The position numbers were made by a program, and so were the translations under genes. The notes beneath the pieces were generated by a model. That model worked only from the letters and a program-made list of their open reading frames with translations, searched no databases and was not told where the DNA came from. From a virus, in the IMG/VR virus record IMGVR_UViG_3300013005_000034, positions 9,652-73,651 of that record: a DNA stretch of 64,000 nucleotides, one strand, 5' to 3'. How positions within the stretch are numbered: the first letter of the stretch is position 1; every line of letters begins with the position of its first letter. Below are positions 1,019 through 27,574 of the stretch, in pieces.

Positions 1019-1022
1019 AAAC

Positions 1023-1490: not shown

Positions 1491-1494
1491 TATT

Positions 1495-1644: not shown

Positions 1645-1669
1645 TGGAAACAAAATTTAATTAAAAAGA

Positions 1670-1852: not shown

Positions 1853-2430
1853 TGGAAAATATTATAAACACAGGATATTATATGCTAATAGTAGATGATT
1901 CAGAGATTAAAAAGGAAACCTATTGTTATGATTCTATAAACAATATTCTTGTTTTCTACAAAGGTAGCATGAAGAATATTGGATTTCAAAAAGTGATTAG
2001 TCATTTACCACTCAATAACTCACCAATACTTGAAAATGTACCTCTTTTACCACCACTTGAAGATGATAATATACATTTTGGAGATTTAAGAAATGTAGAT
2101 GTAGATTCTTTTATGAGTGGCTACAACAAAGCCGAAGAGAAGTATAATTTAACTTTAGATAAGTTGCTTGACTTATACATTGAAGAAAGCGGTTATGGTA
2201 TGGATATGTGGAGTAAAGAAGAAAATGCAACAATGAATATTGTAACTAAAATCATCCAATCCCTCCAACAACCAAAGATGCCTGTTGGGTTTAAGTGTGA
2301 AATAGAAGCAATGAACATAGATGAAATTAGAGAACAAGGAAAAGGTTTTTTAAATACTAATACAAAGAAATTAAAAACAATAACCAACTCACAAGGTCTT
2401 ACTCAATTAGTAGGGGAATACATTTATTAA
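1852..2430 (+). CDS. hypothetical protein, paralog of 17210-17830
   Basis: Start ATG 1852 overlaps the upstream TAA; shares blocks IVDDSEIK, HLPLNNSPILE, QPKMPV and NSQG..Q.VGEYIY. Confidence 0.7.
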   Translation: MENIINTGYYMLIVDDSEIKKETYCYDSINNILVFYKGSMKNIGFQKVISHLPLNNSPILENVPLLPPLEDDNIHFGDLRNVDVDSFMSGYNKAEEKYNLTLDKLLDLYIEESGYGMDMWSKEENATMNIVTKIIQSLQQPKMPVGFKCEIEAMNIDEIREQGKGFLNTNTKKLKTITNSQGLTQLVGEYIY

Positions 2431-2449
2431 CTAAAATCAAATAAAAAAA

Positions 2450-3478: not shown

Positions 3479-3968
3479 AAAAGTATTATTTCTTGACCAC
3501 GATGGAGTAATTTGTTTGGCTACGGAGTGGGGTAGTCGTTTTAAAAACAAAGAGGGTTTTGATTCTTTATTTGATAGATTCAATCAAAAGGCAATAAATG
3601 TTTTGAATGAAATAATTGATGAAACCGATTGCGAGATAGTTATTAGTTCTGATTGGAGATTTCATTGCTCATTATCAGAAATGCAACAACTATATAAAAT
3701 AAGAGGAATAGCAAAACCCCCTATGGCATATACTCGTTCTGATTTAGATTGGAAACTATTTTTAGATGTTAATCCCAATAATGAATTAGAAAAAACAAGA
3801 GTTATGGAGATATTAAGTTATGTAAAGGAATATAATTTAGTTAATTGGGTAGCAGTAGATGATATGGATTTAAGTTTATTAGGGAATTTCGTTCATACTC
3901 CAAAATCTATGGAGGGAATTAAGCAGTCAGGTGTAAAAGAAAAAATAATTAAATTTTTAAACAAATGA
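3468..3968 (+). CDS. HAD-family phosphatase (RNA-repair associated type)
   Basis: FLDHDGV, IVISSDWR and WVAVDD motifs; overlaps the RNA ligase gene. Confidence 0.8.
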   Translation: MENKKVLFLDHDGVICLATEWGSRFKNKEGFDSLFDRFNQKAINVLNEIIDETDCEIVISSDWRFHCSLSEMQQLYKIRGIAKPPMAYTRSDLDWKLFLDVNPNNELEKTRVMEILSYVKEYNLVNWVAVDDMDLSLLGNFVHTPKSMEGIKQSGVKEKIIKFLNK

Positions 3969-4130
3969 GATATAGAATAATGACAATTATATTGTTTTTC
4001 CCTTGCTGTTTGCTTGATTTTTTATTCTTATTAATCATTTATTTGCCTCTTTGGATAGTATGTGGAACTAAATTAACATCAAGGCAACCACTATTAGAAT
4101 GGATATTTGAACAATCAAATAATAAACACA

Positions 4131-4403
4131 ATGAAAACTAAAGAAGAAATAGAACAGTTGGCAGAAAAAGAATATAGAGAATATCCTAACAACCCTTTAG
4201 ATGAACCAGCATGGCATTATAACAAGGATATACATTGCCATAAAAAAAGAAAAGCATTTATCAATGGCTACACTCAATGCCAAGAAAATATTAGTGAAAT
4301 TTTAAAAAAAGCTATTGAATTTGGTTATCAATTAAGGAACAATAATAAACCTATAAATAGTGGAATTGATTGGGTAAATGAATTTAAAAAAACAAAAAAA
4401 TAA
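4131..4403 (+). CDS. hypothetical phage protein
   Basis: Likely start ATG 4131 (MKTKEEIEQLAE). Confidence 0.6.
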   Translation: MKTKEEIEQLAEKEYREYPNNPLDEPAWHYNKDIHCHKKRKAFINGYTQCQENISEILKKAIEFGYQLRNNNKPINSGIDWVNEFKKTKK

Positions 4404-4410
4404 TTTTATC

Positions 4411-4608
4411 ATGAATTGGGAAGCATTTAAAAAAATGACCTTTAAACAAAAGTTATTCACGATTTTTGTTGTTTGTCCAATATTTTTCATTTTTATTATC
4501 CCTTTGAGCAAAGCGGTTGCTAATAAAATCTATGAAAAAAAGAAATATAAAAAAGTAATCAAAAAAGGTTTGCTTTGGGATACTGAATACTTAATAGAAA
4601 AAGACTAA
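4411..4608 (+). CDS. small membrane protein
   Basis: One hydrophobic segment; likely start MNWEAF. Confidence 0.55.
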   Translation: MNWEAFKKMTFKQKLFTIFVVCPIFFIFIIPLSKAVANKIYEKKKYKKVIKKGLLWDTEYLIEKD

Positions 4609-4609
4609 T

Positions 4610-4864
4610 ATGAAAACTAAAGAAGAATTTATAGCAAACTACTTAGATAAAAGTAAAAGGTTGAAAAACCACAACTTACCTTATGGATTACAGTATCTCA
4701 TCTTAGTAGCACAGGTAGAAGAAGATGCCGAAAAGAAGTATAAATCTTACCTTAAAAAACAACAAAATAATGATATTATTTGTCCTAAATGCGGAGGAGA
4801 TAGTTGGAAGTTTAATGCTGTAAAAACAACTATTAAATATTGTAAATGTGGACATGATTTTTAA
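4610..4864 (+). CDS. small Zn-ribbon protein
   Basis: C-terminal CPKCG...CKCGH. Confidence 0.6.
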   Translation: MKTKEEFIANYLDKSKRLKNHNLPYGLQYLILVAQVEEDAEKKYKSYLKKQQNNDIICPKCGGDSWKFNAVKTTIKYCKCGHDF

Positions 4865-4887
4865 CTCACTAAACAAAAAAGATTAAT

Positions 4888-5118
4888 ATGACTAATGGAG
4901 AATATCAACATTTAACAAATGGTTTATTTACTAAACTTAATAGAATAAGCAAAGTATCTAAATATGCAAAGCAAGAAATTCACGATATTTTAAACGAAGA
5001 ATTAAGTGAGCAAGATATTGAAATGGCTCATTCTCGTTTTATTTCTATGATTGAACAAATTGATATATTATCAAGTGAAATTAAAGAGAATTATAAACTA
5101 TTAAACAAACAAGACTAA
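4888..5118 (+). CDS. hypothetical protein
   Basis: Ends NKQD* in the recurrent junction repeat. Confidence 0.6.
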   Translation: MTNGEYQHLTNGLFTKLNRISKVSKYAKQEIHDILNEELSEQDIEMAHSRFISMIEQIDILSSEIKENYKLLNKQD

Positions 5119-5119
5119 T

Positions 5120-5311
5120 ATGAAAAAAACAACATCTATAAAGAAAATATTATGCTTTTTAGGAATACACAAATTAGTATATTATCAAAAAGGACTACAT
5201 ACATCTATAATAGGTTGTACAAGATGCAACAAAACATATTTAGTAGGAGATGTAGAAATATATAATTGTGATTTTGAATTAAAACTAACAAGTAAAAACA
5301 AACAAGATTAA
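5120..5311 (+). CDS. small Zn-binding protein (DUF1660-like)
   Basis: LCFLGIHK...CTRC; ends NKQD*. Confidence 0.55.
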   Translation: MKKTTSIKKILCFLGIHKLVYYQKGLHTSIIGCTRCNKTYLVGDVEIYNCDFELKLTSKNKQD

Positions 5312-5334
5312 TAACAACTAAAAACAAATAACAA

Positions 5335-5622
5335 ATGAAAATACAGCCAAACAAAAAACTAAATAAGTTAAGCAAATTCGATTTAGAATATGTTTTTAAT
5401 TCAGCATTTCCAAAAATACCTAAAGAGGTAGATGAAATTATCATAGCTCACGAAGAAGATTATGTGTTAATAACTAAATTGGGTTGTACTTTAGTTCTAT
5501 TTAGCGATTATAGTATTGAGGTGTTTTCAAACATTATGCCTATTAGGGAAATTAATTTAGTTAATATAACAAACTCTCTAATTGATGTTAGAGCATTAAA
5601 AATCGAAAAAAATGAAAAGTAA
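5335..5622 (+). CDS. hypothetical protein
   Basis: ORF in operon. Confidence 0.55.
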   Translation: MKIQPNKKLNKLSKFDLEYVFNSAFPKIPKEVDEIIIAHEEDYVLITKLGCTLVLFSDYSIEVFSNIMPIREINLVNITNSLIDVRALKIEKNEK

Positions 5623-5998
5623 AGTAAATACTGAATACAAAAAGTGTAGTCATTGCGGAAGTGAAAACATGGTGTCTGATTACCACTATAAGAGTGAAGA
5701 ACTTTATGAGAGTTGCGATGTTTGCGGATTTTACTATTCCAAAATATTATTAAATAATATTGAGGATGGTAACTACCCTAATGATTGGAAACCTGAATAT
5801 AAAGAAACGAAAGGGCTAACTGGATTTGTATTTAAGATTTTCAGTTTTGATTTAGAGGGTTTTTCAGTATGCTTTTGTGAAAAAAAGGATTTAGAAGCAC
5901 TTATAGATAGTTTAGAGAATGACGAATCAGTAGATTTTTTTGGAGTTACATTTAAAGGTAAAAACGGATGTTACAAAACACAAATATTTAAACAATGA
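5612..5998 (+). CDS. Zn-finger protein
   Basis: CSHCG...CDVCG. Confidence 0.6.
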   Translation: MKSKVNTEYKKCSHCGSENMVSDYHYKSEELYESCDVCGFYYSKILLNNIEDGNYPNDWKPEYKETKGLTGFVFKIFSFDLEGFSVCFCEKKDLEALIDSLENDESVDFFGVTFKGKNGCYKTQIFKQ

Positions 5999-6276
5999 GA
6001 ATAGTATCAGAAATTATTAAAACAAACAGGTTGAAAAAAGGAATTTCAACAAAAGAATTTTCAAAGTATTTAGGAATATCTGAATCTATGCTTTCGAGAA
6101 TAGAGGCAGGAAATAGAAAAATTAGTTCTAATAAGCTAAATAAAGTAGCTAAATTTCTTGAACTCCCTGAAAGAGAAATTAAAGTTCATTATTTAATTGA
6201 TGACATAAAGAATAAATTTTCAAATGATAGTAATTTTAAAGAAGCAATTAAAAGATTAAGCCATGAACACAACTGA
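5995..6276 (+). CDS. XRE-family helix-turn-helix regulator
   Basis: RLKKGISTKEFSKYLGISESMLSRIEAGNR. Confidence 0.85.
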   Translation: MRIVSEIIKTNRLKKGISTKEFSKYLGISESMLSRIEAGNRKISSNKLNKVAKFLELPEREIKVHYLIDDIKNKFSNDSNFKEAIKRLSHEHN

Positions 6277-6601
6277 ACTACTTAATAAAATAAATTACAA
6301 TCCAAAACTTGTAGAAGAAATTATGAATTTCTTTGAGGGTAAGCATAGAATAAAAACATCTTTTGAAAAGTTTTGTAATAAACACTACATAGATGTTAGT
6401 CCTTCTATATTGTTTGATTTTTTTGATAGCATAAATATAAAAATAGCAATTTTACCTTTAAATAATACTGACTTTTGGACTTGTAGAATTTTTACTACCA
6501 ATGGTATTATAATTCTAAATGATTTCTACAATAGAAAAGATGCAATATTAGGCGGATTAGATAGAGCTTTATACATATATAGTAATGGATTTGAATTTTA
6601 A
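6263..6601 (+). CDS. hypothetical protein
   Basis: Overlapping operon ORF. Confidence 0.55.
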   Translation: MNTTELLNKINYNPKLVEEIMNFFEGKHRIKTSFEKFCNKHYIDVSPSILFDFFDSINIKIAILPLNNTDFWTCRIFTTNGIIILNDFYNRKDAILGGLDRALYIYSNGFEF

Positions 6602-6971
6602 TATGAAAACAAAAGATATATTATTGGCAATACAAGAATTTGAAAAAATTGATGATTTAATATGTTTCAAAGAAGAAATAAAATCCTTTAATGGTAAATC
6701 TCTTAGTATTAATAACCAAGTTTATTTACTTGATAATATAGAGGAATTGAAAAGATTATATATTAATGAAGTTTGCGAAAAAAGGAAATATACAAAAGAT
6801 AAGATTGAAAACATTAAAATTTTTGAATATAGAGTTGAAGATTTTATAGATATTTTATATTCCCACCTCATCAGCGAAAATCTAATAAGCATAATTTCTA
6901 ATGCTATTATAAGCGATATTACAACAAAAATTTTTAATGATATTATAAAAGAAAAAATAAACAATAAATAA
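6585..6971 (+). CDS. hypothetical protein
   Basis: Overlapping operon ORF. Confidence 0.55.
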   Translation: MDLNFNMKTKDILLAIQEFEKIDDLICFKEEIKSFNGKSLSINNQVYLLDNIEELKRLYINEVCEKRKYTKDKIENIKIFEYRVEDFIDILYSHLISENLISIISNAIISDITTKIFNDIIKEKINNK

Positions 6972-6978
6972 AAAACAA

Positions 6979-7203
6979 ATGGAACAATTAGAACAACAAT
7001 TAAATGAAAAAATGCTACAAATAGCAAAAGATTACATTCAGAGAAGAAATGATAAACCTTTTGAGCAATACGAGGAGGCAAATTATCTTAATGAAAAATA
7101 CCTTTCAGTAAAAAATGAATTTGAAAAGGAAGGCGATTTTTATATAATCTTAAATGAGTGCATAAAAGTAGTTTTAGGAAAAACAAAAAAAAATACAATA
7201 TGA
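6979..7203 (+). CDS. hypothetical protein
   Basis: ORF after an A-rich leader. Confidence 0.55.
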   Translation: MEQLEQQLNEKMLQIAKDYIQRRNDKPFEQYEEANYLNEKYLSVKNEFEKEGDFYIILNECIKVVLGKTKKNTI

Positions 7204-7355
7204 AAATTAAAAAAAGAAAAATTAAAAACCCTTGTACTATTTGTGGTAAAGAAGTTCGTTGGGGAATTGATGGATGCCCTATTGTTGAAAAAGGCAAAGA
7301 TTTTGAAACTTTATTGGGTGGAGTAAAAGGTATGAAGCATTATGAGTGCAAATAA
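7200..7355 (+). CDS. small Zn-binding protein
   Basis: CTICG...HYEC; likely start ATG 7200. Confidence 0.5.
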   Translation: MKIKKRKIKNPCTICGKEVRWGIDGCPIVEKGKDFETLLGGVKGMKHYECK

Positions 7356-7366
7356 AATTTTTAACA

Positions 7367-7415
7367 TAACGGTTTGCAAATAGGCAATCGTTTTAATGTT
7401 GCTTATTTGCTGTTA
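7367..7415. repeat. attC-like hairpin site 1
   Basis: TAAC-GGTTT-GCAAATAGGCAA...TTGCTTATTTGC-T-GTTA. Confidence 0.8.
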
Positions 7416-7453
7416 GCACCAATACGGATTATTAACAACAAAAATTAAATAAG

Positions 7454-7840
7454 ATGAAAGAATTTAAAAAAGAAAATTTAGAATTTTACTTACCTGATAC
7501 ATTTAAAGGATTAAGTAAAGATTATTTACTTGAATGTATCTTCAATGATGAGATACAGAAAAAATGGAATCCTGATGTTGGAGATATTATTATTGGTTGC
7601 ACTGGCAATATTTTTGTAATTGGGGTTAAAGAAACATTACATGAAAGTATTGGTGGGGCGAGATATTATTTTGGTGGTGGCTCTTGTAATAGAGATGGTG
7701 GTAATATATTAGACAGCACATTTTGTTATACCGCAAATGAATCAGGTAAGTTTTATCACACATTAAAAGGTGAAATTCAAAATATTTATCATTCGTGTAT
7801 TAGAGATTTTAGATACGTTCCTTATCCACACGAAAGGTAG
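7454..7840 (+). CDS. cassette-borne hypothetical protein
   Basis: Flanked by perfect 14-bp IR GTTAGCACCAATAC (7412-7425) / GTATTGGTGCTAAC (7840-7853). Confidence 0.75.
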   Translation: MKEFKKENLEFYLPDTFKGLSKDYLLECIFNDEIQKKWNPDVGDIIIGCTGNIFVIGVKETLHESIGGARYYFGGGSCNRDGGNILDSTFCYTANESGKFYHTLKGEIQNIYHSCIRDFRYVPYPHER

Positions 7841-7849
7841 TATTGGTGC

Positions 7850-7898
7850 TAACGGTTTGCGTATAAAAAATCGTTTTAATGTTTTTTATACGCTGTTA
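7850..7898. repeat. attC-like hairpin site 2
   Basis: TAACGGTTTGCGTATAAAAAATCGTTTTAATGTTTTTTATACGCTGTTA; one mismatch to 14333-14381. Confidence 0.85.
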
Positions 7899-7924
7899 TA
7901 TTTAGTTTTTTAAAACTTTTACAA

Positions 7925-8110
7925 ATGAAAAATATAGAAGAAGCAATACAACTTAACTCAATAGATGAAATTGAGGAAGAAATAAGACAACGAAAGGAAT
8001 TAAGAGCAACGATGGTTGGTCAATTATATCCAAGAATATTAACTGACGAGATTTATAAACTCAATGAAAAGTTGTGGAATATAAGACACTCAAAAGTTTT
8101 AAAAACTTGA
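7925..8110 (+). CDS. cassette-borne hypothetical protein
   Basis: Flanked by 23/26 IR at 7895-7920 / 8092-8117. Confidence 0.7.
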   Translation: MKNIEEAIQLNSIDEIEEEIRQRKELRATMVGQLYPRILTDEIYKLNEKLWNIRHSKVLKT

Positions 8111-8113
8111 ATA

Positions 8114-8228
8114 TAACCGCTAACAGATATATGTAGTTTTAACACAATATTTAATAATATGGAAGAAAGTAAAAATTTAGAACAAAATTTGAATAAGAGT
8201 AATGAAAAATTACATATATCTAATGTTA
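8114..8228. repeat. attC-like hairpin site 3 (long loop)
   Basis: TAAC...AGATATATGTAGTTTT / AAAATTACATATATCT...GTTA. Confidence 0.75.
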
Positions 8229-8407
8229 GTTGTAGTTTATCATACCAACCAAGTTATGTTGAAACTGTTTGTGAAGGTGTGTTTTTCAGAATTAAAGCAC
8301 CATTGATATTCAGTGCTGATGTTTTAGCTTATGCTGGTATATTTTCTTTGTTAGACAAAAAACACACCTTTGAATATTATTGCTTAAAATATCTATCTGA
8401 AAGATAA
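8159..8407 (+). CDS. cassette protein whose N-terminus is encoded inside the att-like site
   Basis: ATG 8159 lies in the loop of site 3 and the ORF reads KLHISNVSCSL across GTTA; 16/17 IR at 8225-8241 / 8403-8419. Confidence 0.7.
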   Translation: MEESKNLEQNLNKSNEKLHISNVSCSLSYQPSYVETVCEGVFFRIKAPLIFSADVLAYAGIFSLLDKKHTFEYYCLKYLSER

Positions 8408-8415
8408 ATTACAAC

Positions 8416-8540
8416 TAACGGTTTGCGTGTATAAGAAGTGGCGGATTAGAACTCCAAAACTTTCAGCAAACGCAGAACTTAATTAGAATTACAAAACATT
8501 AAATAACCAAGAAACCCGCCATTTTTTATACACGCTGTTA
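8416..8540. repeat. attC-like hairpin site 4 (long loop)
   Basis: TAACGGTTT-GCGTGTATAAGAAGTGGCGG / CCGCCATTTTTTATACACGC-TGTTA. Confidence 0.8.
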
Positions 8541-8570
8541 GTGGCTGGGCTTTTCACAAATTGAAACAAA

Positions 8571-8747
8571 ATGAACAAAATATTGATATGTGTATTATTG
8601 CAAATCGTTCTTTTTATTCCATTTTATTTGATATGGAGAAATGATTGTAAAACGATAGGTAAAGACAACTTGGCTGTTAGCTTACAAGAACGATTTTTGT
8701 ATTGGCTAATATTTTGTCCAATTTGGTTGGTTGGTGTGTTGGATTAG
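8571..8747 (+). CDS. cassette-borne small two-TM membrane protein
   Basis: 58-aa ORF not in track (MNKILICVLLQIVLFIPFYLIW...); 13/15 IR at 8537-8551 / 8746-8760. Confidence 0.7.
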   Translation: MNKILICVLLQIVLFIPFYLIWRNDCKTIGKDNLAVSLQERFLYWLIFCPIWLVGVLD

Positions 8748-8756
8748 CCTTGCCAC

Positions 8757-8845
8757 TAACTTACTTCTTTACGCTACAATTAAGGAAATAAAAAGTTATT
8801 AACAATTGCATAATTAAATAAAATAATTACTAATTTTGACCACAA
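8757..8845 (+). repeat. 89-bp array-terminal element (candidate attI-like site plus Bacteroidota promoter), copy 1
   Basis: 82/89 identical to 15443-15531; starts with TAAC; contains GTTATTAAC and TAATTTTG (8831-8838). Confidence 0.8.
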
Positions 8846-9100
8846 ATGATACTAAAGTTTAAATACGGTTTTGAATACAATGATTTTCTTTATGGATGGA
8901 ACAATAAAGAATTATACAGATTGCCCTCTAAGAGTGGCAATAAATCTTATGGATTAAAGAAATTAGATTCTATTGTAGTTGGTAACTCAATTGGATATAG
9001 AATTAAACAACAAAAGTTCTCTTTAAAACAACTTAAAGATAGAACGATATTCATAGACAAAGAATATCAAGTTATTAGCGATACAGTTGATATACCTTAA
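8846..9100 (+). CDS. hypothetical protein, weakly similar to 12605-12853
   Basis: ELYRL...GYRI...FS pattern resembles EIYQL...YYRI...YS. Confidence 0.6.
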   Translation: MILKFKYGFEYNDFLYGWNNKELYRLPSKSGNKSYGLKKLDSIVVGNSIGYRIKQQKFSLKQLKDRTIFIDKEYQVISDTVDIP

Positions 9101-9151
9101 AAAATCACAAACAAACAATAAACCAAAACACAAATCAAAATCACAAACAAC

Positions 9152-10345
9152 ATGAAAAGACAAACCACCCTCGCAGAATTGGTAACGGAGTTGAAAGACC
9201 AAAATCTGCAAAAAAAAGATTTCGTAGTTCCTGCAAATCTTTTATCAATGGAAAATGGAAAATTAGTAGTGAACAATTATAGTTCAAACGATTCTCTACA
9301 AAAGATACTTACAGAAGTAGGTATTCAATCAGAGGATTCCAATAAACTAATTTTAAATTGCTTACCTGTAATTCATCAAAACTTATCAGATAAATGCGAT
9401 ATTCCTCGTAAATACTATAATCGTATTCAAGGACTAAAAGACCAAACACTAATTGATACAAATGTTACTCATTGGTTAAAATCCATGAAAGGAAATGTTT
9501 TTTTAAGAACATTTATTGACAAAGATGAACAAAATGGATTCGCAAGAGCATTACTTTCAGATAGATATAACGTAATTGATAACTTTGATGTTTTATTAGC
9601 TACACTTGAAGCAGTTAAGAATAGTGGATTAAACTTAAAGATTGAAGATAACGGTTGTGATTTATCAGAATCTAAAATGTATGTAAGATTTGTTGCTCCT
9701 GAAATTGAAATTAACGCACCCGATTTATTAAAAAACTACAAAAATCCAAAAGGTAATAGTAATGTAGGTGATGGTATTATTACTGGATTTGTTGTTACTA
9801 ATAGCGAAATAGGGCAAGGTTCATTTAATATCAGTCCAAGAGCTGTTATATTAAAGTGCCAAAACGGAATGGTATTTAAAAATGATGCCTTTGGTAAAAT
9901 TCACTTAGGTTCAAAAATGGAACAATATTCTCAAATTGATTGGAGCGAAGAAACTAAAAGAAAAAATTACGAGTTAATTCAGGCGCAAGTAAAAGATGCG
10001 GTTAAGAAATTCACAAGCGAAGATTTTTTAGCACAAAAAATAAGTGAATTAAACGAATATGCTGAAATTGAATTAAAACATCCTATTGAAACAGTTAAGA
10101 ATGTTAGCAAATTATTAAACATTACCGAAGAAAAAGAAAAAAGTATTCTTGACTTCTTTATGAGAGGTGGCGATTTTAGTTACATGGGAGTAAGTCAGGC
10201 ATTAACATTCTTTGCTCACGAAACAAAAGATGCAGACGAAGCTCACGATTTAGAAACAACAGCTATTGAAATTTTACCAAAAATTAAAGAGTTGGATAAA
10301 CCCTCTGTTTCAAAATCAGTTAAAACTCAAATGAGTTTAAATTAA
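9152..10345 (+). CDS. DUF932/DUF945-like phage protein
   Basis: RALLSDRY..IDN, ITGFVVTNSEIG.GS...P....L.CQNGM and HLG motifs. Confidence 0.72.
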   Translation: MKRQTTLAELVTELKDQNLQKKDFVVPANLLSMENGKLVVNNYSSNDSLQKILTEVGIQSEDSNKLILNCLPVIHQNLSDKCDIPRKYYNRIQGLKDQTLIDTNVTHWLKSMKGNVFLRTFIDKDEQNGFARALLSDRYNVIDNFDVLLATLEAVKNSGLNLKIEDNGCDLSESKMYVRFVAPEIEINAPDLLKNYKNPKGNSNVGDGIITGFVVTNSEIGQGSFNISPRAVILKCQNGMVFKNDAFGKIHLGSKMEQYSQIDWSEETKRKNYELIQAQVKDAVKKFTSEDFLAQKISELNEYAEIELKHPIETVKNVSKLLNITEEKEKSILDFFMRGGDFSYMGVSQALTFFAHETKDADEAHDLETTAIEILPKIKELDKPSVSKSVKTQMSLN

Positions 10346-10362
10346 TAATTTAGGAAATAAAA

Positions 10363-10386
10363 AAAGGGGGAAATCACGCCCCCTTT
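10363..10386 (+). terminator. stem-loop, probable intrinsic terminator
   Basis: AAAGGGGG-aaatcacg-CCCCCTTT after the stop codon. Confidence 0.55.
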
Positions 10387-10499
10387 CTAAACCAAAGACA
10401 CTATGTCAAAATAACACTAACGCCACAATAGGCGATACTAAATTATAAATTAAATAAACAATTAATTAATTTTTATATTATACAACTAAATTGTAAAAA

Positions 10500-11387
10500 A
10501 TGAACATCAGTCAATCACTACTAAAATCCCTATTAGATTATCGTAATGGAAAAGAATGTGGATTAATATTTAAGGCAAAGTATATAGATGGAAGATACGA
10601 TTTATTTCCTCCCTCCGATGCACAAAATGTAGGTGCATGGTTTGAATATATGGCTACTGGTAGCATACCTAAAAATGGTATAGTGCCAAAAGCAGAATAT
10701 ATGAAAAGAGGTAAAGATGAAAATGGCAACCCTGAACTTACTGCCGATTATCGCTTAATGAGAGAACATATAGATAATTTCAAAAAGAATATGGAGAGTT
10801 ACTCATTAGATATTATTACAGCAGGAGAAGATATTAAAGTTTTATATCCTAATTCTTTAGAAGAATATGGAGAAGAAGTTTATTTAACAGGAACTCTTGA
10901 TGTAAGAGCAAGAGCAAATAAAGATATTTTTGCTAAATACCAAGATACTATCGTTAAGGTAGCTTCAAAAGATGAAGAAGTTATTATTGATATTAAAACG
11001 ACTGGATTGTTAGACGATAAATGGTCGGAAATGGGCTGGGAGATTAATAATCTATCAAATAAAATTAAACTTGTTACTCAACCTGTTCACTATAAATTTA
11101 TTGAGTATTTAAAAACAGACAAAGATGTACCTTTTATATTTATGTTGTTCAATTCTAAAAACTCAAAAGATGCAAGAATTATTGATTTTAAAGTTGATAG
11201 TTCATCTTTTGAAGAACATAAAGCGTTTATTGAATCGGGAGTTGAAAATATGTTGCATTTGAGAAAATATGGTTTCAAAGCGTTGCCATCACTTGAAAAA
11301 TGTTCAAAATGTCCTTTGAATACTGATTGTAAGTTTAAAGCAGAAATTTCGCCAATAACTATATTTTATTTTGCTCATCAGGTTTAA
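10500..11387 (+). CDS. PD-(D/E)XK exonuclease, Cas4/AddB-like
   Basis: GTLDV...IIDIKT core; N-terminal Cys plus C-terminal CxxCP-x4-C as possible Fe-S ligands. Confidence 0.75.
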   Translation: MNISQSLLKSLLDYRNGKECGLIFKAKYIDGRYDLFPPSDAQNVGAWFEYMATGSIPKNGIVPKAEYMKRGKDENGNPELTADYRLMREHIDNFKKNMESYSLDIITAGEDIKVLYPNSLEEYGEEVYLTGTLDVRARANKDIFAKYQDTIVKVASKDEEVIIDIKTTGLLDDKWSEMGWEINNLSNKIKLVTQPVHYKFIEYLKTDKDVPFIFMLFNSKNSKDARIIDFKVDSSSFEEHKAFIESGVENMLHLRKYGFKALPSLEKCSKCPLNTDCKFKAEISPITIFYFAHQV

Positions 11388-11392
11388 TATAT

Positions 11393-11400
11393 TATGTTTG
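11393..11400 (+). promoter_or_regulatory. Bacteroidota-type -7 promoter element
   Basis: TATGTTTG matches TAnnTTTG upstream of the GIY-YIG gene. Confidence 0.55.
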
Positions 11401-11404
11401 TATC

Positions 11405-11520
11405 GCACAATTCAACTAAAATGAAATTACAAAAAAAATATTTAAAAAAAACCTTTAAGCAAGTAGGAATCCTCTATTTTTAGTTGATTGTGCAACCTAC
11501 TTGCGAGAAGGGATTTTTAA
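11405..11520 (+). promoter_or_regulatory. structured 5' leader with a 20-aa uORF
   Basis: 11405-11421 is complementary to 11478-11493 and 11459-11467 to 11496-11504; uORF at 11421-11483. Confidence 0.5.
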
Positions 11521-11522
11521 TC

Positions 11523-12335
11523 ATGGAAACATCATTAATTATTGAAATTTCATCTTTGCCTTGTATAGATGATAAAAGAGGGCGTTATAGAACAATAGAA
11601 TTATATCCAAAAATTAGTGGAATTTATAAAATAACATCTCCTAATGGCTCTATTTATATTGGTTTATCAAATGATATTTATTATAGGATTTATAGTTGTT
11701 ATAAGAAATTAAGATGTAAGGCTCAACATAAAATATATAATTCTTTAATTAAATATGGTATTGATAATCATAAATTTGAAATTATTCATATTGTTGAAAA
11801 TTTTGAAGAATATGAGAAAATTAAAATTTTAAGAAAATTAGAAATAGCTTATATACAAAAATATAATTCATTTTATGGAAATAATAATTTTGGAATGAAT
11901 TTAACAAAAGGAGGCGAAATAATTGAATTAACAGATGAAACTAAAAAAATAATGAATGATAAGAAAAAAGGTAGGATTGTTTCCCAAGAAACAAGAGAAA
12001 AGTTAAGGAAAATAAATTTAGGTAAAAAATTATCACAAGAACATAAAGATAAAATTAGTATATCTCATAAAGGAAAAATTGTTTCAGAATTAACAAAAAA
12101 AAGATTAAGTGAATCTCACAAAGGAGAAAAACATAGTTTTGAACGAATACAAAAAAAAATTGGAAGTAAACAAAATCCTGAAACAATAAAAAAAAGAATT
12201 GATAAGATTAGCGGTATTAATCATTGGACAAAAAAATATGGCGGTCATTCAGAGCAAACAAAGATAAAAATAAGTATATCACTCAAAGAAAGGCATAAAA
12301 AAATGTCTAATAAGAATGAAAAAAACACTAATTAA
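11523..12335 (+). CDS. GIY-YIG homing endonuclease with NUMOD3 repeats
   Basis: SGIYKIT...IYIG, MNLTKGG and repeated SxETxxKIS.xxKG; likely start ATG 11523. Confidence 0.88.
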   Translation: METSLIIEISSLPCIDDKRGRYRTIELYPKISGIYKITSPNGSIYIGLSNDIYYRIYSCYKKLRCKAQHKIYNSLIKYGIDNHKFEIIHIVENFEEYEKIKILRKLEIAYIQKYNSFYGNNNFGMNLTKGGEIIELTDETKKIMNDKKKGRIVSQETREKLRKINLGKKLSQEHKDKISISHKGKIVSELTKKRLSESHKGEKHSFERIQKKIGSKQNPETIKKRIDKISGINHWTKKYGGHSEQTKIKISISLKERHKKMSNKNEKNTN

Positions 12336-12627
12336 AAGAAAAAAATTAAGTAAGAGTTTAAGAATAAAAATATTTGAGAGGGATAATTATGAATGTCAGT
12401 TGTGCTATGACAATTTAATAGATAAAAAAGATTTAAGAGTAATAGACCATAAAATACCTCTTTCAAAAGGAGGCAGTAACTCAATATCAAATCTTTGGCT
12501 ACTTTGTAATGATTGTGATAAAAGAAAGAAAAATAAATTGTTTCCTGAATTGATGAAACAATACATAAAGGGTAAGTTAAATTATCTTTCTAATTTAAGA
12601 TTTAATGGAAATCGTTATAATAAGTGA
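12316..12627 (+). CDS. HNH endonuclease
   Basis: RDNYECQLC...DHKIPLSKGG.N...NLWLLCNDC. Confidence 0.85.
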   Translation: MKKTLIKRKKLSKSLRIKIFERDNYECQLCYDNLIDKKDLRVIDHKIPLSKGGSNSISNLWLLCNDCDKRKKNKLFPELMKQYIKGKLNYLSNLRFNGNRYNK

Positions 12628-12853
12628 ATATGAAAATTTACCTTACATAGTTAAAAGCGAGAATGGAGAAATATATCAGTTAAGTTATTATGATACTAAA
12701 AAAAGAATTAAAAAATACAAAATATTAATACCTAAAGAGCATAACGGAAGTATGTATTATAGAATTAATAGTGAGAGATATTCAGATTATAGATTAAAAA
12801 CAATTGAGATTAAAGTTTATAAAAGAATTAACCTAAATAAAATAAAAAAATGA
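12605..12853 (+). CDS. hypothetical protein
   Basis: Operon ORF; weak similarity to 8846-9100. Confidence 0.55.
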   Translation: MEIVIISEYENLPYIVKSENGEIYQLSYYDTKKRIKKYKILIPKEHNGSMYYRINSERYSDYRLKTIEIKVYKRINLNKIKK

Positions 12854-13140
12854 AACCATTAAAAATCAAAGGAGTTAAATTAAAAAAAGGAGAAGAATTA
12901 TTACATTATTATCCTTTTTGTTATTGCATAGCAAAATCTACTGAAAGTAGTGCTTTATTTGTAATACCTCCACAAAATAAAGGAACTGTTGCAGATAATG
13001 GTTATTTAAGCGTTTGTTTTGATTATAAATTATGTAAAGATGTAAAAGTAGGAGATTGGTGCGAAGTAGGTTATATAAGTGATTATAGTAAAGGAGAAAA
13101 TAAAGTGCTTAAAATATTAAAATCTAAAAAAAATAAATAA
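12850..13140 (+). CDS. hypothetical protein
   Basis: ATGA overlap with the upstream gene. Confidence 0.55.
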   Translation: MKPLKIKGVKLKKGEELLHYYPFCYCIAKSTESSALFVIPPQNKGTVADNGYLSVCFDYKLCKDVKVGDWCEVGYISDYSKGENKVLKILKSKKNK

Positions 13141-13372
13141 TATGAATAAAAAAATTAATATTATAGGAATCATTATTTTTTTATTTTCTCTTTCATATTT
13201 AACAATATACACTATGATTATTGATTTATATTATGGTATATCTATGGGATTAATTTCAATTTTATTTATAATAATTATATTAAAAAGTAAAAAAAAGAAA
13301 AATGAATAAGTATGGAAAATAAAAATACTTTCTATGGGATTGAAATATTTAAAAACTAAAAAAAATAAAAAT

Positions 13373-13410
13373 AAATAAAAACAAACAAAATGAAAACAAC
13401 AAAAACAAAA
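13373..13410 (+). repeat. 38-bp direct repeat, copy 1
   Basis: AAATAAAAACAAACAAAATGAAAACAACAAAAACAAAA, identical to 15554-15591. Confidence 0.7.
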
Positions 13411-13434
13411 ACAAAAATGAAAACAACAAAAAAA

Positions 13435-13662
13435 ATGGAACACAAAAATTTGAATACAAAAGAAACCGCCAATAGCGATTTAGGTGCTGTTAGCGGTAGT
13501 TTGAGGGAACAATCTCTTGAATGGTTTTTCGCAAAAAGTGAAATTGAGAAACACGATTTAAAAGACAAACACTTTCCAAACACACCAATACAGCATAGTA
13601 GGCAATGGGGATTTCATTTCACTTTTGGTCAAATTGAGGAAATGTATGTTAAAGAACGGTAA
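13435..13662 (+). CDS. cassette protein starting within an att-like site remnant
   Basis: MEHKNLNTKETANSDLGAVSGSL reads across GCTGTTA; 14/15 IR at 13489-13503 / 13663-13677. Confidence 0.7.
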   Translation: MEHKNLNTKETANSDLGAVSGSLREQSLEWFFAKSEIEKHDLKDKHFPNTPIQHSRQWGFHFTFGQIEEMYVKER

Positions 13663-13740
13663 CAAATTACCGCTAACGGTTTGCAAATATATTTCAGTTG
13701 CGGTAAAAATAATAATAACTTAATTAAATAAATAAAAAAA

Positions 13741-14295
13741 ATGGAAAACACAAAAAAAGCATACAAAGAAATATTTAAAGTCTTAAATAAATATAAAGAT
13801 GTTATTGTTATTGATATTAAAACATTAGAGGAAAAATCAAAACTCCATTTATTTGGATTAGAATTAAAAGAAGTTTACGGACTTGAAATCAATGAGAAAC
13901 GTATCAATAATATGCAATATCAGGAATTAAAAGACAACGTATATCTAACTTTTATTGATAGCGAAACGAGAACTATAAGCTGGGAAGATAATGGCAAAAA
14001 ACCAAAAGGAGAAAGTTTGATTAAGTTTAGTTATCCAACAGGAGCTTACATTTTTGGTGGAGATTATCCTACTGATTTTTTCCAAAAGTTTTTTTTAGAA
14101 TTGAAATCATTTAATCCCGATTATTGCGATAGCGCCAATAAAAGCCTGTATTTTAAATTGGAAAATGCAAAAGAAATATTTAATAGTTATGATTCAATAA
14201 TAAAAAAATATTACGAATTAAACAAAGAAGATATTAAACAAAGACAGATTTTAAAAATGAAAGCCGATTTAGAAAAATTAGAAGCAAGTAAGTAA
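13741..14295 (+). CDS. cassette-associated hypothetical protein
   Basis: Lies between half-site 13674 and complete site 14333. Confidence 0.7.
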   Translation: MENTKKAYKEIFKVLNKYKDVIVIDIKTLEEKSKLHLFGLELKEVYGLEINEKRINNMQYQELKDNVYLTFIDSETRTISWEDNGKKPKGESLIKFSYPTGAYIFGGDYPTDFFQKFFLELKSFNPDYCDSANKSLYFKLENAKEIFNSYDSIIKKYYELNKEDIKQRQILKMKADLEKLEASK

Positions 14296-14332
14296 CGCAC
14301 CCACAGGCGGGGAGGGTTTTAAAACTTGTACC

Positions 14333-14381
14333 TAACGGTTTGTGTATAAAAAATCGTTTTAATGTTTTTTATACGCTGTTA
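14333..14381. repeat. attC-like hairpin site (array 2)
   Basis: 48/49 identical to 7850-7898. Confidence 0.85.
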
Positions 14382-14484
14382 TAACCAGTAGGGATTATTA
14401 AGTACAAATGCTCATTCGGAGAAGTAAACAAAAAATTAAAACAAAAAAAGTGTAGGGAATAATTAATCAATTAAATAATAAAAA

Positions 14485-15357
14485 ATGACAACAGAAAAAC
14501 AATTTGGCGACTTATCACATTTTGCAAAAAGAGATGTAGAACTTTTTAGAAGTTCAGACCAAAACGAAACCGCTATCTATTTTACGGAATTAGAAGATAA
14601 GCAAAGAGAAACTGCGAAAGCGTTTTTTGAAATACTGCGATTTGGCTTGGATGGTGGCGACCATCAAATATATGTTCGTTTCCCAAATACTGACCATTTT
14701 GTAGAAATGATTGGTGGTGGATTTGGTTCAGGTAGAGGGTATATGAAAGTAGCTGATGGTAAAAATGTTTGGGAGGATAAAAACAAAGCACCATTTAGAA
14801 TCTATTCACATAATAAGGATTTACTTTTCATAATTGGTAGAACTGATTGGACTGGAGAATTTAATTTTATGACAAAAGTTGCAAGTTATGATAAAGGAAA
14901 TCCATTCAATCATCCTTATCCTAATGAAACATTTGTGAATTTCAAAGAGATTGAAAAAGCACTTTCAATGAAATATTTAAAGATACCTGAAAGTATAAGA
15001 AAGATTGAATATTGCTACAAAACTAAAGATACAACACCAAAATATTTTGTAGTGGATTATCCAGCTTACAATTTCAAATATGACAACCATAGATTTTTTG
15101 TGATTGAAAATGAACATATAAAAGAATTTGGGATTAAAAACTTTGTAAGATACAAAGATGGTGGAACAACTATCATTACTGTAACCGATGAAAACGGAAT
15201 TGAACACAAATTCTTTTCACCAACATCATTGCCTGAAAAAACGCTTTGTGAAAAGTGGGATAAAACTGAATTGATAGAAGCAAGTGAAACTGAAAAGCAA
15301 AAACTTACAGAACTTTTGAATTTGAATGTAGAACCAAATATAGTTGACAAAGAATAA
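14485..15357 (+). CDS. cassette-borne hypothetical protein (290 aa)
   Basis: 14/15 IR at 14378-14392 / 15432-15446, plus inner perfect 21-bp IR at 14429-14449 / 15381-15401. Confidence 0.75.
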   Translation: MTTEKQFGDLSHFAKRDVELFRSSDQNETAIYFTELEDKQRETAKAFFEILRFGLDGGDHQIYVRFPNTDHFVEMIGGGFGSGRGYMKVADGKNVWEDKNKAPFRIYSHNKDLLFIIGRTDWTGEFNFMTKVASYDKGNPFNHPYPNETFVNFKEIEKALSMKYLKIPESIRKIEYCYKTKDTTPKYFVVDYPAYNFKYDNHRFFVIENEHIKEFGIKNFVRYKDGGTTIITVTDENGIEHKFFSPTSLPEKTLCEKWDKTELIEASETEKQKLTELLNLNVEPNIVDKE

Positions 15358-15442
15358 TCATTTAGTCATTTGTGTGTGGATTTTTTTGTTTTAATTTTTT
15401 GAACGATAAAGTTAATTCGGAGCAGTCCACACCTATTGGTTA

Positions 15443-15531
15443 TAACTTATTTATTTGCGCTACAATTAAGGAAATAAAAAGTTATTAACAATAGTATAAT
15501 TATGTAAAATAATTACTAATTTTGACCACAA
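15443..15531 (+). repeat. 89-bp array-terminal element, copy 2
   Basis: 82/89 identical to 8757-8845; TAATTTTG at 15517-15524. Confidence 0.8.
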
Positions 15532-15553
15532 TACAGAAAATAAGAAGCACGAG

Positions 15554-15591
15554 AAATAAAAACAAACAAAATGAAAACAACAAAAACAAAA
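15554..15591 (+). repeat. 38-bp direct repeat, copy 2
   Basis: Identical to 13373-13410. Confidence 0.7.
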
Positions 15592-15597
15592 TAAAAA

Positions 15598-16413
15598 ATG
15601 AAAACAAAAATGAAAACAAAAATTGTAACATTAGCAATCGCATTAGTATTAATTTTAACATCATGCGGAACACTTGTAGAGCCTAACTATGGTGGTGTAT
15701 TAATGCAAAATTATGGAAAGAATGGTAAATCAGATTTTACCGAAGTTCAGGGGAGGGTATCAACTTGGGGTATGGGAACGGAATTGTATCAAGTGCCTAT
15801 GTGGGAGCAAAGAGGACAAGTAGATGATACATTACATTTAATTTCTGCCGATAATAACGAAATTGAAGCATACCCTAAATATTCATATCAGGTAAACAAA
15901 GGTCGTTTAGTTGATGTAGTATTTGATAATAGACAATTAGGAAAGGGAAAAGAATTTTTATCATCTGTTGAAAGTAATTCTTTAGAACCAAGAATTTATG
16001 ATATTATAAAAGAAGAAAGCCGTAAATATATTACTGATACCCTTATGTCTATTGGTGGTGCTTTAAAGTTTGAAAAGGATTGTGAGGCATTAGTTAGAAA
16101 AGCATTTGAAGATAAAGGTTTCAAACTATTAACTTTTGTCGCTCAACTTAAATATTCCGATAAAGTTCGAGAAAAGATTGACCAAAGATTAGAGGTTAAT
16201 ACAAACATATCGGTTATTGACCAACAAATAGCAGAACAAAAGAAAAAGAATGAATTGGAAAAGTTAAGAACAGAGTTTATTCTTATTCAAAATCAGGCAT
16301 TAACACAAGCATACCTACAAAACAAATGGCTTGACAAATGGGATGGTAAGTTAAGCACTTATAGTTCAAATGGTAATATGCCTATTCCAATGATTAATGC
16401 AAATCAAAAATAA
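15598..16413 (+). CDS. SPFH/band-7 domain lipoprotein
   Basis: Lipobox LTSC, V.P.Y.GV motif and C-terminal coiled coil ending WLDKWDG.L. Confidence 0.75.
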   Translation: MKTKMKTKIVTLAIALVLILTSCGTLVEPNYGGVLMQNYGKNGKSDFTEVQGRVSTWGMGTELYQVPMWEQRGQVDDTLHLISADNNEIEAYPKYSYQVNKGRLVDVVFDNRQLGKGKEFLSSVESNSLEPRIYDIIKEESRKYITDTLMSIGGALKFEKDCEALVRKAFEDKGFKLLTFVAQLKYSDKVREKIDQRLEVNTNISVIDQQIAEQKKKNELEKLRTEFILIQNQALTQAYLQNKWLDKWDGKLSTYSSNGNMPIPMINANQK

Positions 16414-16420
16414 AATCATA

Positions 16421-16639
16421 ATGAAAAAAATATTTAAAATAGCCATAATCTTTTGTGTTATGGCTTTATGTTCCTGCGATTGCGAAGAACATAAATATAG
16501 AATAATATCAAATGGGGATGTTTATTTCTCAAATGAATACAAAAAAGAAGGCGACTGCATAAAGTTTACCAATTACGACAATGGTAAACTAACAATATGC
16601 GGTAACTATTCAATAGTAGAAACAATTTCAACACAATAA
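16421..16639 (+). CDS. small lipoprotein
   Basis: Signal peptide with LCSC lipobox. Confidence 0.55.
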   Translation: MKKIFKIAIIFCVMALCSCDCEEHKYRIISNGDVYFSNEYKKEGDCIKFTNYDNGKLTICGNYSIVETISTQ

Positions 16640-16641
16640 CA

Positions 16642-17205
16642 ATGAAAAATACAAAAAAACAAAAAACAAACTATCCATTGTATTATAAATACATAGGGGT
16701 TACAACAACAGAGGGTTTTACTAAAGATAGAATTTATAAAATTATAAATCGAGAACATTTAGAAACACCTTGCAATTTCATAGATGATTATGGCAAAAAA
16801 AATGGACATTCAGGCAATAATCATAAATATTTTAAACCATCAACATTAAAAGCATTTATGCAACAAGAATCTTTAAATAAAAAAACAAGTATGAAAACAA
16901 CAAAAAAAACATTAGTAAATACAGATACTAATGGAGCAAAGAAAAACGTAAAAGATATTCAGTTTTTCGGAGATGGCGATACTTTTAAATTAATTAGCAA
17001 AGCATCATCTGTTAAAGAAGGTTGGATGAAATCAACCAAAGCAATGCAAATTGATACTGTTGGTTGTGTTGTTCAGGTTACTACACAGCAAGGTAATAAT
17101 ATTGCCGAAGCAGTTACTTTCGTTCCTAATGTAAAAATAAAGGAAACAAAAGATAAAGAGGGTAAAGTTATTTCAAGAAAACTAATAGCAATATATAATA
17201 TTTAA
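16642..17205 (+). CDS. two-part phage protein; C-terminal half resembles a common phage domain
   Basis: Internal ATG 16891 precedes KASS..EGWMKSTKAM....GCVVQVTTQQ. Confidence 0.6.
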   Translation: MKNTKKQKTNYPLYYKYIGVTTTEGFTKDRIYKIINREHLETPCNFIDDYGKKNGHSGNNHKYFKPSTLKAFMQQESLNKKTSMKTTKKTLVNTDTNGAKKNVKDIQFFGDGDTFKLISKASSVKEGWMKSTKAMQIDTVGCVVQVTTQQGNNIAEAVTFVPNVKIKETKDKEGKVISRKLIAIYNI

Positions 17206-27558: not shown

Positions 27559-27574
27559 CAATTATAAATATGTA

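Follow-up and report, generated by a model that had tools for sequence, protein, structure and literature searches.

Integrons are viewed as bacterial devices whose integrase requires a special insertion for folded single-stranded sites. In CTX phage integration, a folded hairpin offers two binding arms around an unpaired centre. For phages, clusters of attC sites have so far been the subject of a few scattered reports, with no cognate enzyme. One such report described the virulent Polaribacter phage P12002L as carrying a cluster of attC sites lacking integron integrases (CALIN) with two methyltransferases; its attC sites were called by HattCI plus Infernal, and IntI1 recombined the attC2 bottom strand into attI1 (Qi et al. 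2023, PMC9892861). This was the only paper on phage attC sites recovered in our full-text literature search, which returned no description of the site family reported here or of its recombinase. A comparable arrangement is found in T4-type phages, in which the short conserved stem-loops of promoter/stem-loop (PeSL) cassettes flank small variable early open reading frames (ORFs) in plastic genome regions and mark indel or swap breakpoints, according to PMC2839356 and PMC4122927. Here, we analyzed a 64,000-nucleotide stretch of phage DNA (the window), which corresponds to bases 9652-73651 of the 73,651-base IMG/VR virus record IMGVR_UViG_3300013005_000034 and contains ORFs separated by hairpins with TAAC and GTTA ends. 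These hairpins form two arrays, and we focused on the second (array 2, 13435-15531), for which a sequence-only reading had proposed a stepwise domestication of cassettes. The data suggest that the TAAC...GTTA hairpins are probably the recombination sites of an integron-like cassette system in Bacteroidota phages (Flavobacteriales, Chitinophagales and relatives). Array 2 is best read as a partly decayed array without a recombinase, in which one hairpin is intact and two are broken.

The hairpins make up a genuine family of structured sites. When IMG/VR was scanned for the exact pattern, at least 119 loci were identified and filtered by fold energy, since many matches were expected by chance; about half were not hairpins, and the remainder had the same flanks with different, self-complementary stems. 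In a seed of 16 sequences, pairing was 97.8% (32-54% in slid controls), TAAC and GTTA were invariant in 16/16, and nine of the 12 pairs of the inner stem had changed on both sides, with a covariation score that was reached by 0/500 shuffles. The outer arm AYTG-N4-TAAC can pair with GTTA-N4-CAGT, an asymmetric bulge has GGTTT on the 5' side versus one base on the 3' side, and the inner stem-loop is variable in sequence and length. Sites with the same arms range from 49 to ~130 nt, and those in the window are 49, 49, 108, 125 and 49 nt long. Integron sites are likewise imperfect hairpins with AAC/GTT ends and a variable centre; here they occur in co-oriented arrays between single promoter-less ORFs. 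The family differs from integrons in the bulge of the phage site (5 nt versus 1 nt) and in the conserved arm, which extends to 12 nt.

A covariance model of the sites, R1, produced 114 matches in 62 phage loci. When applied to whole records, it detected matches in 27/27, nearly always on one strand per record (9/9 on a single strand in the window's record, 11/11 in G016, 6/6 in G001 and 6/6 in G037). Six of the nine matches in the window's record are located within 9.6 kb upstream of the window. A looser hairpin finder added diverged members, including a site at 8121-8228 of the window. Among 147 unique sites, 295 G-T versus 66 A-C mismatches were counted on the TAACG...TGTTA strand, which argues that the fold is selected on this strand; selection of a fold on one strand is also a property of integron sites.

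Sites of this family were also found in cultured phages that infect marine Flavobacteriaceae. Two R1 sites (49 and 51 bits) flank methyltransferase gp36 of Polaribacter phage P12002L, and two each were detected in Tenacibaculum phage JQ (41 and 36 bits) and, with weaker scores, in Cellulophaga phage phi19:1 (23 bits). In contrast, when the strict pattern was searched in one genome per species (185,579 species), only 8 contigs were found, all from metagenome-assembled genomes: these were of Flavobacteriales, Chitinophagales or Saprospiraceae type, plus one Saccharibacteria bin. One of the 8 has a length of 34,585 bases, as does one viral record from the pattern scan. So small a number of contigs from so many species suggests that, unlike those of integrons, the sites are phage-borne and not chromosomal.

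We then compared loci that share parts of their arrays. For 226 mosaic locus pairs, breakpoint classes were counted on site-touching alignments with a length of 100 nt or more, and the counts include related contigs. Alignments covered the site and >40 nt of downstream sequence in 22 cases, whereas upstream sequence plus the site was covered in none. In 20 cases (11 distinct sites) only the hairpin was shared, from TAAC to GTTA, and in 11 the alignment ran across the site and both flanks; seven alignments were upstream-only, ending in the first 13 nt of the site (the 5' arm), and four were downstream-only, starting in the 3' arm. One pair was especially clear: compared with L041, locus L059 has an extra 1.29-kb block of four hairpin-plus-ORF units, with flanks that are 99.3% and 96.4% identical. 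TAACGGTTTGC is present at both edges of this block, and the bases 5' of each TAAC follow the upstream partner. The breakpoint classes, together with the L041/L059 pair, suggest that the usual unit is a hairpin with its downstream ORF and that the usual crossover is in the 5' arm. A cassette composed of an ORF and its downstream site, as in canonical integrons, is contradicted by the 22 alignments in which the hairpin moves with downstream sequence and the absence of any in which it moves with upstream sequence.

The site strand was the sense strand of the neighboring gene in 109/122 upstream and 102/122 downstream contexts, and the stop codon of the upstream ORF was the TAA of TAAC in 40/122. 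In long sites, the ATG of the next ORF is in the loop and its frame passes through the 3' arm (L140, L141, L133, L143-L148, and window positions 8159 and 13435).

A tyrosine recombinase (PF00589) was detected in 14/50 site-bearing records. In 13 of these 14, a site was located upstream of the recombinase gene on the same strand, mostly at 0.2-2 kb and at up to 3.6 kb in G016; G025, which deviates from this, is rich in GC and has a tRNA-like sequence before its integrase gene. The array-associated recombinases have 263-307 aa. In the L129 sequence, read by eye, the catalytic residues (R, K, HxxR, H and Y) are present, with only ~60 residues between KDR and LRHS. The top NCBIfam match was NF040815 (XerA / 'integron integrase'), at 163-216 bits versus a cut-off of 220; the XerC and XerD models gave 126-187 bits (cut-off ~330), and TIGR02249 matched in two stretches with 128-195 bits (cut-off 265), skipping profile positions ~180-238, which are the IntI insertion. 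The best relatives in PDB were XerA 4A8E, XerA 5HXY and IntI4 2A3V (two stretches), followed by XerD. These matches place the predicted enzyme in the Xer/IntI clade but in no named family. It thus resembles Xer/dif systems in being closest to XerA, XerC and XerD, but differs from them in that there are many sites per genome in cassette arrays instead of one attachment site, that no dif-like target was identified, and that the recombinase is encoded by a minority of the site-bearing phage genomes. The recombinase family had 4,556 metagenomic proteins at E up to 1e-20, and a tblastn search of 50,697 cultured phage records (E up to 1e-30) yielded no match. The closest relatives in 301 Flavobacteriaceae genomes were at most 43% identical and ~380 aa long, with no sites nearby; these chromosomal homologs were considered as a trans-acting enzyme and rejected for want of evidence.

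An independent sample of 16 loci was drawn via the recombinase (relatives at 56-71% identity) and not via the site. In 16/16, a motif ATTG-N4-TAAC-N4-5-ATWTGTA was present 45-70 nt before the recombinase ATG. This attI-like motif consists of the outer-arm half of the hairpin sites and a different right half, and has no hairpin fold. Exact TAACNNNNATATGTA was found in 17 fetched loci, and 15 of these matches were at the pre-recombinase position. Generic same-strand hairpins were also enriched, with 28 in 35 kb upstream of the recombinase versus 2 in 59 kb downstream, and at least one was present in 9/10 of the independent loci with at least 700 nt of upstream sequence. Two controls were used: the motif was absent from 20 host loci with a ~380-aa recombinase, in which 6 hairpins were counted over 74 kb, and the late region of the window had 1 hairpin in 40 kb. 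A recombinase of the Xer/IntI clade next to a putative attI-like site at the end of an array, seen here in relatives and not in the window, would be a further likeness to integrons.

Many recombinase contigs (L179-L182, L187, L192-L194) end 55-1200 nt upstream of the gene, several of them at 60-200 nt; the first bases of L181 are the TAAC of the attI-like motif. These ends may be positions where assemblies break as the cassette content of the population varies. The 45.7-kb record G031 is 100% complete and has no PF00589; exact TAACNNNNATATGTA is located there 3' of its two hairpins (L105 9185-9199, - strand), and this copy may be an orphan attI-like site or part of another long hairpin.

In the integron-like system that we consider probable, a cassette would be one hairpin plus the next ORF, whose start is often in the loop and whose stop is often the TAA of the following TAAC, and the main crossover would be within TAACGGTTTGC, the 5' arm that is conserved. 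Site-bearing records have, in about a quarter to a third of cases, the order array, non-hairpin attI-like site, 263-307-aa recombinase, all on the same strand. Viewed from the opposite strand, this arrangement would become a recombinase, a simple site with GTTAGGT-like GTTRRRY and co-oriented hairpins, which is the classical integron plan; the crossover would then be at the R' GTT arm, and the folded strand would be the 'bottom' strand. Crossover in the 5' arm of the folded strand and recurrent methyltransferase cargo would thus be shared with integrons. Departures from the classical layout are that the ORFs of the cassettes run from hairpin to recombinase, antisense to the canonical cassette, and often begin within the loop, and that the arrays are located in early regions of phage genomes. 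Arrays 1 and 2 would be integrase-less (CALIN-like) and would need a recombinase in trans, which could be encoded in the unsequenced part of the genome, by a co-infecting phage or by the host. Both arrays have at least two close sites in a record with no PF00589, which makes them CALINs provided that the sites count as attC-type. We infer an action of the recombinase on the hairpins, with single-stranded DNA as its substrate, and an immobilization of cassettes by loss of an arm.

It is also possible, if short of probable, that these phages have an integron analog of their own, in which a minimal Xer-like recombinase without the IntI insertion joins folded sense-strand hairpins with the attI-like site and shuffles cassettes, with mostly anti-restriction methyltransferases as their identifiable cargo, between co-infecting phages. 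Either recombination of cassettes at single-strand hairpins would then have been invented independently, or the analog would be related to the integron ancestor.

Array 2 contains three sites of this family in different states of preservation, all on the + strand. Exact TAACGGTTTG occurs five times in the window (7367, 7850, 8416, 13674 and 14333), with every copy intergenic and on the + strand, and GCTGTTA has 17 copies versus 6.9 expected, a number reached in 0/100 shuffles. The first site of array 2 (13435-13492) is a remnant of a ~128-nt hairpin that has kept the loop and the 3' arm GCGATTTAGGTGCTGTTA and lost the 5' arm. The right arm noticed in the sequence-only reading (GCTGTTA, 13486-13492) is real, but the preserved part is larger than had been stated: 11 fetched loci have the exact 18-mer GCGATTTAGGTGCTGTTA (13475-13492) as the 3' arm of a complete site, and 13435-13495 can be aligned, with hardly a difference, to the loop and 3' arm of complete ~128-nt sites in L143, L145, L146 and L148. 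The R1 score of the remnant is only 10 bits. In place of its 5' arm, the presumed crossover point, there is an A-rich repeat, AAACAAACAAAATGAAAACAACAAAAACAAAA, which occurs at 13356-13435 and 15557-15604 (96% over 48 nt), has reiterated ATG-AAA-ACA codons and precedes two ORFs. A 75-aa ORF (13435-13662, +; 90 aa if the start is 13390) has its ATG in the loop of the remnant, and its frame crosses the 3' arm.

The second site (13666-13705, +) had been described as left-arm-only. The 5' arm is indeed kept at 13674, intact together with its 5' flank (ATTACCGC-TAACGGTTTGCAAATA); however, this is an internally deleted site, which has lost the apical stem-loop and retains a decayed 3' arm, with CAGTTG where GCTGTTA is expected. 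It reads TAACGGTTTGCAAATATATTTCAGTTGCGG at 13674-13703, its first 16 nt are the same as those of the site at 7367, and it can still fold a short outer helix, ACCGC(T)AAC/GTTGCGGT. It scored 14 bits against R1 (E 0.35), whereas the intact window sites scored 79-84 bits. Intact counterparts of this site come after the homologous ORF in L140 and L141. The third site (14321-14393, core 14333-14381, +; 81.3 bits) is complete, and as the sequence-only reading had it, its core is 48/49 identical to that at 7850-7898 (98% over 52 nt); the single difference is a C to T change, by which a G-C pair becomes G-U. This hairpin and ~120 nt of downstream leader are repeated at record positions 3417-3583 (L132; blastn 82.7% over 173 nt). 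The second site is followed by a 184-aa ORF (13741-14295, +), a cassette-type gene flanked by complete sites in relatives, and the intact 14333 hairpin is followed 3' by a 290-aa ORF (14485-15357, +). The 75-, 184- and 290-aa ORFs had no Pfam or PHROG match.

The array ends with a conserved element (15431-15530, +), in which an outer half-site, ATTGGTTATAAC, is followed by ~85 nt that end in TAATTTTG, which we take to be the Bacteroidota -7 promoter box. The ~85 nt are 88% identical to 8745-8846, the paralogous terminal element of array 1 (+), and the next conserved genes start just after. We considered both terminal elements as hairpins and rejected this, as the DNA fold was unsupportive (z +1.1 for 8745-8822).

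With the unit defined by the breakpoints, the cassettes of array 2 would be revised as follows: cassette A (13435-13676) would be a hairpin reduced to its loop and 3' arm, then the 75-aa ORF; cassette B (13677-14335) would be the internally deleted hairpin, then the 184-aa ORF; and cassette C would start at the intact 14333 site and carry the 290-aa ORF. Since A has lost the arm in which crossovers map and B has lost its stem, A and B (13435-14332) are probably fixed as a block. This block is probably no longer excisable, and only the 14333 junction would stay usable.

We searched for homologs of the two ORFs of this block. The 184-aa ORF has 7 homologs in viral contigs, with complete hairpins on both sides in L133, L134, L138 and L139, one hairpin ~480 nt upstream in L136, and none in L135 and L137. 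The 75-aa ORF has 3 full-length homologs, with complete sites on both sides in L140 and L141 and none in L142; six more matches were limited to the hairpin-encoded N-terminus. Identity to the window is 99.5% for L140, confined exactly to 13482-13679, and 93% for L133, confined to 13727-14340; in both, it stretches from one site arm to the next. The outcome named as refuting in the sequence-only reading, homologs that always lack complete sites, was thus not observed. Thus, the idea of a cassette pool from which both loci draw holds, with homologous ORFs between complete sites elsewhere and nucleotide identity that ends at site arms. It does not extend to the 290-aa ORF, whose single homolog (L217, 76% identical) has no sites. 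The proposed stepwise domestication is plausible: two defective sites fit fixation by half-site loss, but the terms 'older' and 'stepwise' imply an order of events that these data do not date.

An N-terminal peptide encoded by the hairpin, MEHKNLNT..ETANSDLGAVS, is present in L143, L145, L146 and L148 (about 3001-3058) and at 13435-13492 of the window, and the bodies of the ORFs with the MEHKNLNT leader are unrelated past the GTTA arm. A common leader with unrelated bodies suggests that exchange at the 3' arm seems to yield in-frame fusions to the leader.

Several observations weigh against an integron-like system. PF00589 was not found in the whole 73.6-kb record of this phage (~62% of the genome), which leaves cassette activity here inferred, and 11/17 site-bearing genomes that are at least 90% complete lack it as well (6/17 have it). 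The predicted recombinase is without the IntI insertion, which PMC8138268 calls essential for integron function. Breakpoints also occur in the 3' arm, as in the 4 downstream-only and the 20 hairpin-only alignments, and therefore a single fixed crossover cannot account for everything; in addition, the pairs L133/window and L134/L139 have an ORF in common but not the upstream hairpin. With regard to sampling, the loci behind the R1, strand, breakpoint and gene-orientation counts were recruited via the site pattern, the recombinase-anchored sample being the independent one, and R1 is tuned to one sub-family, with E-values that are rough. The published P12002L_attC2 would be one of the two R1 sites in that phage, as judged from position only, and the sites in the paper are divergent whereas the R1 sites are co-oriented (PMC9892861); the published recombination by IntI1 is therefore indirect support for attC-like hairpins. 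Finally, sense co-orientation, the excess of G-U pairs and the start and stop codons in the hairpins fit a role at the RNA level equally well.

This RNA-level role is the strongest competing explanation, although we consider it unlikely. It holds that the hairpins are RNA punctuation of early transcripts, acting in processing or stability or as a start-codon platform bound by a sequence-specific RNA-binding protein, and that shuffling is a by-product of recombination at the short conserved arms. It would account for the orientation of sites relative to genes, the TAA stops in TAAC, the prevalence of G-U over A-C on the sense strand and the ATG codons in loops of long sites, and also for breakpoints at both arms and for near-complete genomes that carry sites without a recombinase; the PeSL cassettes of T4-type phages provide a precedent (PMC2839356, PMC4122927). 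However, PeSLs are promoter-terminator composites that are thought to recombine by homology (PMC2839356, PMC4122927), whereas the arrays described here have no promoter or U-tract that we could find and are accompanied by a dedicated tyrosine recombinase and its cognate half-site. The window sites were absent from the 6 terminator-like calls in 6800-16000, their 3' flanks had no consistent T-run, no adjacent promoter was found, and an Rfam search of 6500-16500 (E up to 1) returned no family. Moreover, the best conserved part is the 12-nt flanking arm, which recurs without a hairpin before the recombinase in 16/16 independent loci; hairpins are enriched upstream of the recombinase, and they are linked to downstream sequence. 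Recombination as DNA has also been reported for a site of this family, whose identity we deduced from its position (PMC9892861). An RNA-level role may coexist with recombination, but alone it leaves the recombinase, the half-site motif and the 22:0 linkage unexplained.

More doubtful still is the possibility that the hairpins are selfish palindromes, similar to miniature inverted-repeat transposable elements or repetitive extragenic palindromes and perhaps mobilized by the recombinase, and that the ORFs are ordinary, immobile phage genes. The 20 alignments that comprise exactly one hairpin, at 75-90% identity and in unrelated contexts, would be explained in this way, as would the same 49-mer occurring three times in this genome beside unrelated ORFs. 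Uniform attC sites next to unrelated ORFs are normal in chromosomal integrons. On the other hand, the commonest shared unit was the hairpin with its downstream ORF, ORF homologs recur between different hairpins in different phages, the L041/L059 indel consists of four hairpin-plus-ORF units and no bare hairpin, and ORF starts within loops mean that hairpin and gene are physically fused.

Least credible is that these are canonical integron cassettes (CALIN) captured from chromosomal integrons of the host and acted on by a host IntI: the sites have attC-like TAAC/GTTA ends, hairpin form and variable length, and attC tools predicted those of P12002L, one of which served as a substrate of IntI1 (PMC9892861), but the strict pattern is nearly absent from the 185,579 species' genomes, no IntI-type integrase is located beside any array, the IntI insertion is missing from the recombinase that accompanies the arrays, ORF orientation to the site is opposite to that of a canonical cassette, and the recombinase relatives in the 301 Flavobacteriaceae genomes are distant, longer and without nearby sites.

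Returning to the integron-like system, the proteins it would move were examined among 152 distinct ORFs located directly 3' of hairpins, of which 144 were scanned with Pfam. These 144 included 23 DNA methyltransferases (15 N6_N4, 2 MT-A70 and 6 C5), one Lar and nine other families, and 111 had no Pfam match. The identifiable cargo is mostly DNA methyltransferases, which fits a counter-defence role.

The window's sites belong to a coherent family that spans hundreds of uncultured and several cultured Flavobacteriia phages, and this family is large and mostly undescribed. It comes with a compact recombinase and an attI-like site of its own, and its gene orientation is reversed; compared with integrons, the cognate recombinase here is a predicted one. 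If the recombinase acts on the hairpins, this would explain the shuffling of early-gene regions in these phages and would reveal a phage trade in anti-restriction methyltransferases. It would also offer a tractable test of hairpin recombination without the IntI insertion, with a bearing on the origin of integrons, and array 2 would be an example of cassette fixation via loss of the crossover-bearing arm. An integron analog run by these phages, if true, would mirror on the phage side the bacterial integrons in which anti-phage defence genes are stored.

Array 1, also on the + strand, has four hairpin sites. Those at 7355-7427 (core 7367-7415; 79 bits with R1 and supported by the fold) and 7838-7910 (core 7850-7898; 83.6 bits) are complete, and the 49-mer of 7850-7898 is identical in L009, L050, L064 and L070. 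These two cores and that at 14333-14381 each form a 49-nt hairpin, in which the inner stem has 12 bp, the loop has 11 nt and the outer helix is TAACG/TGTTA. The long site at 8121-8228 was detected with the generic hairpin finder and by DNA folding; it has a 16-bp AT-rich stem, and the ATG of the ORF at 8159-8407 is inside its loop. At its 5' end, this site matches TAACNNNNATATGTA, a motif that elsewhere precedes recombinase genes (1 match versus 0.10 expected by chance). We considered 8114-8138 as an orphan attI-like site and rejected it, as it is the 5' arm of this long hairpin. The other long site (8416-8540, 125 nt) has the same arms around a 20-bp stem with G-U pairs and a long loop; its fold energy is -38 kcal/mol (z -5.4), and it is 88% identical to hairpins in L022 and L119.

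Upstream of the window, record positions 1-9800 (L132) contain a third, larger array with at least 8 hairpin sites, located at 2587-2677, 3405-3477, 4093-4208, 4453-4535, 4748-4872, 5010-5120, 5377-5497, 5736-5854 and 6452-6527. This array includes an MT-A70 DNA methyltransferase cassette (5810-6466) and the third copy of the 49-nt hairpin.

The source record is ~62% complete as estimated by CheckV, and the window has a GC content of ~28%. Small, tightly packed ORFs occupy the + strand over window bases 1-24,200, whereas genes beyond 24,200 are on the - strand and include lysis, tail-like and other phage signatures. DNA of this record was detected in lake-water metagenomes from 2018-2025; among the matches listed, at least half of the sampled words were present in 8/24 runs, 2 of which may themselves be the source of the record. 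An exact 33-mer from the window had 0 matches in metagenome contigs. A blastn search of 12000-17000 against cultured phages matched only a lipoprotein gene, in Bacteroides phages. This gene (15598-16413) was used as a synteny anchor and 21 loci were found, but the 4 examined among the 5 closest share that gene alone. The possibility that array 2 is a variable island between conserved flanks was thus not supported, as the examined lipoprotein-anchored loci share no other gene.

Several other features of the window were observed. At 2450-3968 (+), an RNA ligase gene is next to a gene with a HAD 'Swiss-army-knife' RNA-repair domain. Three genes are of homing-endonuclease type (NUMOD3, HNH, and GIY-YIG plus NUMOD3), in the listed regions 2450-3968 (+), 11484-12627 (+) and 53822-54787 (-). 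A TnpB / IS605 OrfB-type gene (OrfB_IS605, Cas12f1-like TNB, HTH) is located at 26386-27561 (-), at the switch between the early and late gene blocks, and is overlapped by a 372-aa ORF on the opposite strand. In the late region, five ORFs within 56596-62295 (-), at 56596, 57039, 59953, 61137 and 62147, have a common 149-nt segment that is 78-88% identical; it is at the low-coordinate end, which is the 3' end of these - strand genes, and they form a late-region paralogous family. An 810-aa ORF (41938-44370, -) contains at least ~19 copies of a 45-nt (15-aa) repeat, and the adjoining 690-aa ORF (38729-40801, -) has several internal repeat families and a weak match to the N-terminal domain of T7 tail fibre.

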